In this document: positions 58,604 through 62,667 of the stretch, in pieces
Layout of the letters: the number at the start of each line of letters is the position of its first letter
Position numbering within the stretch: the stretch's first letter is position 1
Source: Ginglymostoma cirratum
Taxonomy: Eukaryota
DNA: 64,000 bases
NCBI GenBank assembly: GCA_024137785.1
Contig: JAHRHZ010000063.1
Span: 21,263,281 to 21,327,280 of the forward strand
Direction of reading: 5' to 3'
The notes under the pieces: generated by a model
Database searches by the model: none
Told to the model about the DNA's origin: nothing
The model's input: the letters and a program-made list of their open reading frames with translations, nothing else
Program-made: the position numbers and the translations under genes

Positions 58604-58739
58604 GAATTTGCCCTGTCTCTTTCCCCTTCTCTCTGTGGAGAAACTATAATCCACTAGCAAGTCTTAAAAAGTCGCTCATCATATTCCATCTTAACTGTTT
58701 GCTGGACGTGTTGACAGCGACGCAGAATGCCCCATAAAG
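58604..58739 (+). other. pax6: Pax6 exon 2 (5' UTR, contains uATG at 58727)
   Basis: Acceptor tctctgtctccttcgcag|GAAT. Ends ATGCCCCATAAAG|gtgagt (human ATGCCTCATAAAG as recalled). Confidence 0.92.
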
Positions 58740-61590
58740 GTGAGTCTGTTTGCTTTCTTACATTTAATTTAGTGCATTTTGGGCATCTTAATTAACATTA
58801 CTCAATCACAAGACAAATTTCAGTTTCCTTCAGCTTCTATCTATGATTTATAGCTCAGCTCAGATTCAGTGCAACATATTATACATTTTAACGAGACTTT
58901 GATCATTTGCGGATTGTTTTCAAATGCCGCAATGAAACAACGGGCAATTCTTAAGGGGGCACATATAGGTGCACTGTCTTCAGGAAACTCAAAGGAAATT
59001 CAGTCTATTCCAAGTCATTGTATCAAACCATTCTCTAGTTTTAACTTGTGAATTGTTTATACCCTATTATCGAGACGTTTTAACTATTAATGGCAATTTT
59101 AATCGAACTCGGCGGTCACGCATTCATTTACTTTACCATTAAAATAAATAATTTCGGAACGATACACCAGAGAATTTAGCAAAATCCCCTTATTCTCCCT
59201 GCAGGCAAATGTAAATTGGCGTTTCTGGGAGGAGACGCGAAATGTGTTTGAGATGCTGGATTGTGGGGTTGTCTAATGTCATTTTTTTTCTGCATGTTTA
59301 TAAGTAGTTGTTGTTTATTAATGATAAAAAAGAGTAAAATAAGTCACTTTAGGCCAAAGCTTGCTGTTTGATGAAGATGCAATGACCCGATGATGCATTG
59401 TGTCAGTTTGAATTAAGCAATCAGCCGATTCATTAGTGCCGTTTGCATTGAGTGCTTCAAACTCGTCAGAACTCTGTGCAAACGTTAGAGCTTTACGTTA
59501 TTTTTAAGGCAAAATTTAGTTATTAACGTGCTTCACCTTGTCGAGGGCTAATGGGCTCGGCGAGTAAGCACCAAACTGCATGTGTTCATGTTAAAAAGCA
59601 AATGAATTGACATGAGCGGTCCTTTCTCGGCTCCGGTTCCACGCAGTCATTTGATCAATGCTTTCTATCCCTGCTGTTCAAACCAGATCCTTCGGTATTA
59701 CAAACTTTGTTTTAATTTCACACTAAAATAATTTATAGCCACTTAAAATGACCATGGCCTGACGAGAGAACCAAGCATCTCAGTTTTATTTTTTGGGTTG
59801 ATATTAATAATCACTCGCAATTTAGAGCAAATATATTGCATTAATTCAGCTTTCGCGTCAAGCATTGAGATATTTAGCTGTGAGGTGCAGACGTAAACGG
59901 AGCCGTGCCTGTAAGATTTAAATTACCGTAACTACTCGATACTATAATAAATTATTGAGCGCTGAACCGAGGATTTCTGTACCTCTCATTATAAATAAAA
60001 TTTCTGATAGTAAAAATAATCAGCGTAGTTTTCCCATTATTATAGGCACGAGTGTTCCAATTGTAAACTGACCGCATCTTAATAGTTAAAACAGGGAAAT
60101 ATTGGCTCAGGTGAGAAGAAGATAAGAGTTTCTACATTTGTTAAAATGCATGCAAGTTTGCGGTTCGTTGGTACAAAATCTGAATGTGGAGGATAAAGGG
60201 AAAAATAAATTCAGCAAATGAGGTATGGAACAGGGGACTACTGTGAGATTTACGGGTGTTTTTGTTTTAAATATATACAATTCTATGCTTCACATCGTCT
60301 AGTCTCGGGCCAGCGTTGAGCAAAGACTGGGCCGAAAAAAGAGTGACAGTTTGGTTCGAAATCGGCTGTTAGATACAATAAGAACGCACCCTGTGTATTT
60401 GGTGTCTGCTGTTAGACGTACATTTATATACGTAGAAGACATAAAACGTGTAAATATATAAAGACCAGTATCAGGCTGGGCCTTTGAGGAACAACTGCTT
60501 GTTCAGCACTTGATTTCATCTATGTACCGAGGGACAATAGTAAAGATTGGTCTTAAAATTCTAGCCCTGAAATGGATCAGGGCGTTATCAACTGCTTTTC
60601 TGTGTATTTTTTAAAAGTACATTTTAAAAAGGCAGTAAAACGGCATGTGAACTTTTCAGAAAGTGATGAATTGCTTTTTGCAAACCGAGTAATTAGGAAA
60701 GCACTTCCTGCAGCCGTGAAAATCCCCCATCGCAGTCAAAAGACGGCATTTTCCCTTTAATTTTTTTTTTATTGCAAATGTTAAGGCCCTTTCCTAAAGC
60801 GGGAAAGCACAAACGATCTTTCGTAGCCTTACTAGCAGCGACGGCTTCCGTTGGCTGCAACGGAGTTAAAGCGCCCGGCTTCTCCCGCTTGCTGTGGTAA
60901 TCAGGTAGTCACCCTTGGCTGTTGTAAATATTTACGCAGGGAAGTCTGCATGCTGGGAGAAAGTGTTTGTTTGAAGTTTATTTTTTTTGTGTGTGCAGGA
61001 ATAGATAACAAAGCTAGTCTATAAATTATTTTCCGGTGGTGTGTTGATGAATACAAAGAAGAGAGGAGGGTGGAAAACCGAGGCTGCAGGAATTTAAGTC
61101 AGATGTAAAAGTGGGGTGAGGGTGGGGGAGGGTGGGAGGTGGTGGGGGGTGCAGAGTATACCTTCTACTTACGGTGGCAAAGGGAAACAGAATGAAGTAT
61201 TTCGAGAAAGAGGTAAAAGGAAAATGAAAGCTGGTCCATTTCGTTATTGTACCCCTCTTTTAGCAAACCCCGTGAATAGACCCTTTATTGTAATTGTCTT
61301 CTTGCAATTGAGCGTCCCACGGAGCTGTTGTGTCTTTTTACAACCGTTAACAACCCAATACCAGCAACATAATTACCTCCAGATACTCATAACAGAAATT
61401 ACTTGTTTTATTTGGGGAGTGGGGGAGACGGAATAGCAAAACAAAACTGAAAAAAAACTGCTCACAGTTCGATAGTGAAAGTTGATTCTCCCCTGTCTCA
61501 CACCACCCCCCCCCCATTACCTTGAATGAGTGTGAGTGGGAGAGGACGCACTACGTTTAGCTGAACATTGTGTTGCTGGTTGGAGAGCCT

Positions 61591-61643
61591 GTGTGTATGT
61601 GTGTGTGTGTGTGTGTGGGTGGGTGGGTGGGTGGGTGGGGGGG
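61591..61643 (+). repeat. (TG)n followed by (GGGT)n; G-quadruplex-competent
   Basis: Read directly, in intron 2. Confidence 0.9.
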
Positions 61644-62603
61644 AGTAACTCTCTGGGTACGGGCTGTAAGCAGAATAGAAAGCATTGTTCACTTTCTGTA
61701 GCCATTGTCGATCAGTGCTGACCCCCTCCCGTTACTACTTTTTAAGCACTGAGGCGAGGTAGACAGCGTGTGTCAGAATACCTCAGCATAAAAGAGGACC
61801 TAAAGACCAGGGAAGAAAGTTAATCAAGAGGAACTAAGTTCGAAAGTACGTTATGGCGTACAGTACGTTAATAAGTTTTTTTTTGTGGGGGGAAAAACTT
61901 AGACTGAGGACGAGCCCCTGCCCATCCCCCCCAAAAAACGCTGAAATACTAAACTGAGCGAACTAAACCATGCCGAGATATATGCAGAATTGTCAATGAT
62001 GAAATATTACAAGTCCGCCCAAAGCAGAAGCGAAATATTCACATACTATCTTCACAAAGTATGGGAAATGAGGCCGGTTTATGCGCATGCTTATGGGCAT
62101 TGAAACAGTATTGCAAACATTCCCTGGAAGAGCCTGAAGTGATACGTCCAGCGTGCGGTATCATCATTTTTCTCACACAGGAAACCATGAAACCCGTGCG
62201 AGGAGGCAAAACATTTTTGAACGGACATCATTCGAAGTCCCTGAGATGAGTTAAACAGGCGCCTTCACTGCGTTGAGGTGTGACATAGAATTCGAGCGTA
62301 AATTCTTTCCGCCTTCCTGAAAGTAACTTGATGACGGGTTGGGGAGGGTACTTTGCGCAAGATGGGCATACCGGCTTAGAAAGACCGGTTCCCCTTGTCA
62401 TGTTTGAGCAACTTTTACGCGACCCGTAAGACAAGTCCAAATACCTTGAAACGGTCAGGTTGTTACCGAATGATTCAGTGCAGTTTCTGGTCTAAGTAGG
62501 GAGGTTCAGGAAACTGCACCAGTAATCCAACAAAATATATATATATATTTAAATCGCCCATCAGATTGCCATAATAAACTTTTTTTGTTTTCTTTTTCCA
62601 TAG

Positions 62604-62667
62604 AGGGAAGACTTTAACTAGTAACAAACAGATGCCTGTGGTCACAGGCTGTCAACACAGGTTTCAG
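62604..62667 (+). other. pax6: Pax6 exon 3 (5' UTR, 64 nt, GC-type donor)
   Basis: Acceptor ttttctttttccatag|AGGGAAGACTTTAACTAG (human GGGGAAGACTTTAACTAG as recalled). Ends TTTCAG|gcaagt. Confidence 0.88.

Follow-up and report, generated by a model that had tools for sequence, protein, structure and literature searches.

The Pax6 upstream open reading frame of a shark: a probable ancestral start exon that would now act mainly as a translational brake

The analysed window, a stretch of 64,000 nucleotides from the 4.36-Gb genome of the shark Ginglymostoma cirratum, carries the 5' portion of a gene that is identified as Pax6 by the paired-box, homeobox and C-terminal exons located downstream, past the end of the window (Table 1). 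The splice junctions were inferred from consensus sites and homology; the reading derived from the intron ahead of exon 5 is identical to that of a ray model, as fits a cartilaginous fish, and the junction between exons 3 and 4 falls at the place where the frog model P0104 passes from HRFQ to NS. No Rfam family matched within the window.

Table 1. Features of the 5' portion of shark Pax6 (positions in the window, unless a contig position is given)
Feature	Position	Strand	Remarks
Upstream ATG (uATG) and last 13 nt of exon 2	58727..58739	+	encodes M-P-H-K and the G of the next codon, phase 1
Intron 2	58740..62603	+	GT-AG, 3864 nt; predicted junction
Exon 3	62604..62667	+	64 nt, probable stop cassette, GC donor at end
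Exon-3 half of the upstream open reading frame (uORF)	62604..62617	+	14 nt, TAA at 62615-62617
Second-frame stops TAG and TAA	62619..62624	+	TAG position common to human; TAA absent in a relative
Second uORF, ATG in exon 3	62632..62968	+	23 codons once spliced, weak context
Intron 3	62668..62932	+	GC-AG, 265 nt
Exon 4	62933..62987	+	45-nt leader, main ATG at 62978, phase-1 donor at 62988
Exon 5 (paired-box)	G000:C63:21328843-21328973		beyond window end

Three splice outcomes, with their frames, can be read directly from the shark DNA. The consensus GT donor and AG acceptor flank the uORF intron, and with this predicted splice the 13 nt of exon 2, which begin with an ATG (58727-58729) that has A at -3, and the first 14 nt of exon 3 encode MPHKEGRL followed by a TAA stop; the intron-split uORF of eight codons described in the earlier note is thus present in the DNA, with its start and stop where they had been placed. 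When exon 3 is skipped, exons 2 and 4 together form an ORF of 35 codons, which overlaps the main ORF in a different frame. When both exons 3 and 4 are skipped, exon 2 joins exon 5 in frame, because exons 2 and 4 both end in phase 1, and the result is an open Pax6 frame that starts with MPHKG directly before HSGVNQ. It should be noted that a short ORF is by itself commonplace, a stop within nine codons being found for 431 of the 1137 plus-strand ATGs of the window.

A second uATG follows in exon 3, 14 nt after the stop of the first uORF, and 9 nt separate the end of its ORF from the main ATG. Leaders of the ATF4/GCN4 type carry two uORFs and exert reinitiation control. The shark leader resembles them in having a short first uORF and then a second uATG, but it differs in its spacing of only 14 nt and in giving no sign of stress control, and a reading as ATF4-type delayed reinitiation was rejected because the second uORF neither overlaps the main ORF nor lies well downstream. 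Mammal and bird models (P0072, P0107 and P0221) start at the site matching the second uATG, and the frame that they read there overlaps the main ORF. For human PAX6, no ATG uORF of this kind is present among 32 of the 37 PAX6 rows of the supplement of PMC9943669, in which one two-exon ATG uORF appears.

Both the uORF and its disease link are already known. The human uORF was reportedly described as evolutionarily conserved by Filatova and co-workers in 2021. It is cited to Filatova et al. 2021 (PMID 34174135) in PMC7617937, PMC11062406 and PMC9943669. According to passages of reviews, variants that cause exon-3 skipping or a frameshift turn it into an overlapping uORF and thereby lead to aniridia, and frameshift variants are classed as out-of-frame overlap in the curated human uORF annotation (PMC9943669). 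The association of a 5' UTR uORF with aniridia, which the earlier note had mentioned, agrees with published reports in which frameshift or exon-3-skipping variants are causal.

By published uORF and splice-variant coordinates, the shark feature is the Pax6 uORF, with start, length, split and stop position the same as in human: in both species the ATG lies 13 nt before the exon-2 donor and the stop 14 nt into exon 3, giving a 13+14 nt split and eight codons. The second-frame stop ends at base 18 of exon 3 in human and shark alike, and all ten human bases recoverable from variant tables agree with those of the shark. In both, loss of exon 3 creates an out-of-frame overlap with the main ORF. The differences concern the lengths of exon 3 (64 nt in shark, 77 nt in human) and of the exon-4 leader (45 versus 51 nt), and the second-uATG ORF, which in the shark stops ahead of the main ATG. 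To judge from these sequences and coordinates, the match is more than chance. The second-frame TAG and TAA had also been pointed out in the earlier note, and both are present in the shark; the TAG position is common to shark and human, but the TAA is not conserved, position 62624 being T in a relative's contig. A family deletion of 'exons 3 and 4' (PMC8491394) was considered as a natural test of the exon 2-to-5 join and rejected as unusable, since the coordinates given there spare exon 3 and a primer sits in the paired-box exon.

The in-frame product of exons 2 and 5 is identical at 40 of 40 residues to each of a crinoid (P0252), a hagfish (P0254) and a buzzard (P0238) protein, and at 38-39 of 40 to entries from a spider, Daphnia, Trichuris, a beetle and the sterlet. 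The first 40 residues of the buzzard isoform were used as the query of an N-terminus search, the best 120 of 2840 matches of which comprised 109 new clusters. Among these best 120 matches, 56 of the 109 clusters carry MPHKG (33 clusters) or MAHKG (23 clusters) just ahead of the paired domain, and in 41 of those clusters it is the start of the protein; because the matches were ranked on the motif, these counts show its spread and not its frequency. Carriers among the matches listed are crinoids, hagfish, a millipede, spiders, scorpions, a tick, crustaceans, a springtail, insects and a nematode; brachiopods and an ascidian have closely similar forms, and 3 of 12 acorn worm members have an MPHKG start. 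A second, profile search made without the motif returned 144 usable entries among 150 matches, of which eight have related N-termini: two with xHKG directly before HSG, one with MPPKG, three with MPHK and a cassette, and two with the teleost extension; most of the others are apparently ORFs read into an intron. For an ATG ahead of a donor, the probability that P-H-K follows by chance is 5.6e-5.

In isoforms of Daphnia, a moth, a beetle, a psyllid and sea urchin, a cassette follows directly after MPHK or MAHK, and these isoforms point to a junction at the same place in invertebrates, where intron positions were deduced from protein isoforms rather than from DNA and without a tree. The N-termini of the invertebrate proteins Pax6, eyeless and twin of eyeless resemble the shark reading in having the same residues directly before HSG[VI]NQ and the same apparent junction; they differ in that MPHKG is there part of the main coding sequence, whereas the shark has two extra exons before the paired box. 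Other first exons also occur, in molluscs, an annelid, urchins and the acorn worm. In lamprey, both types of start are present ahead of a phase-1 intron, YQKG in Pax6 gamma and MNNS in Pax6 alpha (supplement of PMC6925180). The earlier note had dated the uORF to the gnathostome ancestor, which is too recent, as MPHK-G is far older, Pax6 proteins across bilaterians having it as their coding N-terminus. We infer that exon 2 would be the ancestral Pax6 start exon, behind which exons 3 and 4 were inserted.

In vertebrates, models that join exon 2 to exon 5 are found in three bird species (3 of the 15 members listed, in a cluster of 22) and in the sterlet (2 of the 15 members listed, in a sturgeon cluster of 35), all of these being annotation models. 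An MPHK start is absent from the 18 cartilaginous-fish Pax6 proteins examined and from the primate and frog members listed. In sturgeons, paddlefish and teleosts, the exon-2 ATG leads into an in-frame extension of 19 residues through exon 4. Fish have been described as starting in exon 4 when exon 3 is included and in exon 2 when it is absent (PMC6480603), and the extension has been called teleost-specific, with an exon-4 start given as the strict rule for tetrapods (Ravi et al. 2013; PMC3554528). The shark has the same ATG and a homologous exon-4 leader. However, the extension is present also in sturgeons and paddlefish, in the shark it falls into another frame, and the ATG probably predates vertebrates. 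The exon 2+4 reading of the shark is identical to the sturgeon extension at 12 of 19 residues, with ATWDSGV in common (shuffle p about 1e-5), the leader thus being homologous to the ray-finned extension but one base out of frame. Its length is 44 nt in these ray-finned fishes and 51 nt in mammals; the shark and the frog, lizard and bird models have 45 nt, and it is because the shark leader has 45 instead of 44 nt that exons 2 and 4 together run out of frame over the main ORF for 35 codons. Since exon 2 joins exon 5 in frame, MPHKG is widely spread in invertebrates and the ATG is used as a protein start in vertebrates, the uATG is likely to be the bilaterian Pax6 start codon. A model of the lizard Podarcis lilfordi (P0100) joins exon 2 straight to exon 4, in the out-of-frame form that causes aniridia in people; lizards may use the repressive form naturally, or the model may be wrong.

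The shark feature is thus a copy of the known Pax6 uORF. Its ATG exon was probably the bilaterian start exon, which would now act mainly as a short translational brake, owing to the stop contributed by exon 3. From general scanning rules and the human alleles, the following course can be proposed. On mRNAs containing exon 3, many ribosomes would start at the old ATG, favoured by the A at -3, and would stop after eight codons; they would pass the second uATG too soon to restart, and reinitiation at the exon-4 ATG, 95 nt downstream of the uORF, would set the dose of Pax6. Exon 3 would thus be a stop cassette that renders the old start harmless and damps the dose. The start and the first codons may owe their preservation to their past as coding sequence and to some remaining use as a protein start, and the exon-3 stop is presumably kept because its loss makes the uORF a repressive overlap, while the peptide as such would have no role.

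The latter point is at variance with selection on the peptide, one of the two options named in the earlier note. In such a reading the eight residues would themselves act, as a stalling or signalling peptide, selected since the ancestor of jawed vertebrates. The equal length and split in shark and human would fit this, as would the exon-3 sequence: a relative's contig has one change in exon 3, at 62624, and none in its first 14 bases, and beaver and chinchilla models, which are compatible with a stop in exon 3, read RGKTL across the start of that exon exactly as does the neighbouring frame of the shark. However, an identity in another frame argues for constraint on bases and not on codons. Moreover, residues 3 and 4 vary in vertebrates (MPHE in sturgeon; MPQK, MPLK and MPPK in teleosts), and back-translated gene models show that residue 3 cannot be His in a lizard nor residue 4 Lys in the beaver. 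Residues 1-4 are accounted for by the coding start, so that no invariance of the peptide is left beyond other constraints; the same ATG is a real protein start in other splice forms, and fish mRNAs are described as skipping exon 3 (PMC6480603). An action of the peptide is accordingly very improbable. Hardly more probable is the alternative that the conservation is due to nothing but splice signals and elements of the RNA or DNA at both exon ends, the uORF being an untranslated by-product. The 27 nt do adjoin a donor and an acceptor, and one variant near the donor is classed as a change of a factor-binding site. In addition, a codon-position test of the exon-4 leader in the exon-2 frame gave no coding pattern between shark and frog (7 changes at second versus 4 at third positions) or lizard (5-6 versus 5). 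However, the human uORF is part of a curated uORF annotation with its frameshifts classed by reading-frame overlap, and the identity with invertebrate N-termini would not be predicted. Around the ATG, 16 of the 18 bases of a zebrafish morpholino, which spans the exon 2-4 junction, equal those of the shark, and both changes fall at third codon positions, as would be expected of a coding sequence. In the relative, exon 4 is free of indels and all 31 gap letters are intronic; substitutions in exons and introns (1/119 versus 11/234) do not differ significantly (Fisher p 0.067).

A more serious competitor, though still an unlikely one, is that the old start has remained a regular protein start in sharks and tetrapods, exons 3 and 4 being skipped, and that an MPHKG-Pax6 isoform rather than the uORF keeps the sequence. 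The shark genome has the open frame and strong sites for such an isoform, and it is annotated in the three birds, the sterlet, a filefish and hagfish; the lack of an MPHK start in the cartilaginous-fish, primate and frog proteins noted above speaks against it, as does the drift of residues 3-4 in vertebrates, where arthropods hardly change, and reviews place the start in exon 4 in the passages concerned. It would also leave the importance of the exon-3 stop in people unexplained. The origin as a coding start followed by conversion into a brake therefore remains the preferred reading, and it divides the selection on reinitiation proposed in the earlier note: selection for an early stop that permits reinitiation is the best reading for the exon-3 half, but the start and the first codons are better explained by coding history. 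A further proposal, which is tentative and rather doubtful at present, is that the bilaterian start exon has been retained in vertebrate Pax6 as a splice switch with three positions: inclusion of exon 3 would give a dose-tuning uORF, skipping of exon 3 an off state (or, in ray-finned fishes, the extended protein), and loss of both exon 3 and exon 4 the ancestral MPHKG-Pax6.

PAX6 is dose-sensitive, and the uORF is a known site of aniridia. If the start was indeed demoted, this would explain the conservation of the uORF without a function of the peptide, it would correct the idea that the exon-2 start is a teleost invention, and it would provide a clear example of a uORF that arose from what was once a coding start. 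It also predicts an in-frame exon 2-to-5 isoform. Should humans produce MPHKG-PAX6, making the transcript skip exons 3 and 4 would lift the brake and circumvent those aniridia alleles that lie in the 5' UTR or affect the exon-4 start codon. The origin of the known uORF as the ancestral Pax6 start is likely to be unreported: a literature search yielded no Pax6 paper carrying the motif and no published statement that equates the PAX6 uORF with the invertebrate N-terminus, although figures and most subscription papers lay outside this search, so that the relation may already have been noted.

Several minor observations can be added. The catshark isoform X5 (P0232) has another short first exon, with MFRG before HSG, which resembles the FRQG of lamprey Pax6 beta; a simple pattern search found no donor-flanked exon matching MFRG on the plus strand of the shark locus. 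In the sea urchin proteins P0597 and P0589, the cassette between MAHK and the paired box contains W-G-S, a loose resemblance to the W-D/E-S-G of the vertebrate exon-4 leader that is too short for a call of homology. Intron 2 of the shark (3864 nt) is nearly as long as its human counterpart (3902 nt by published coordinates), although the shark genome is larger. The GC donor of intron 3 (62668) is weak, could favour skipping of exon 3, and is the same in a relative. Finally, the exon-3 acceptor is a tandem AGAG (62602-62605), and use of its second AG would fuse both uORFs into one of 36 codons that starts with MPHKG and ends before the main ATG.
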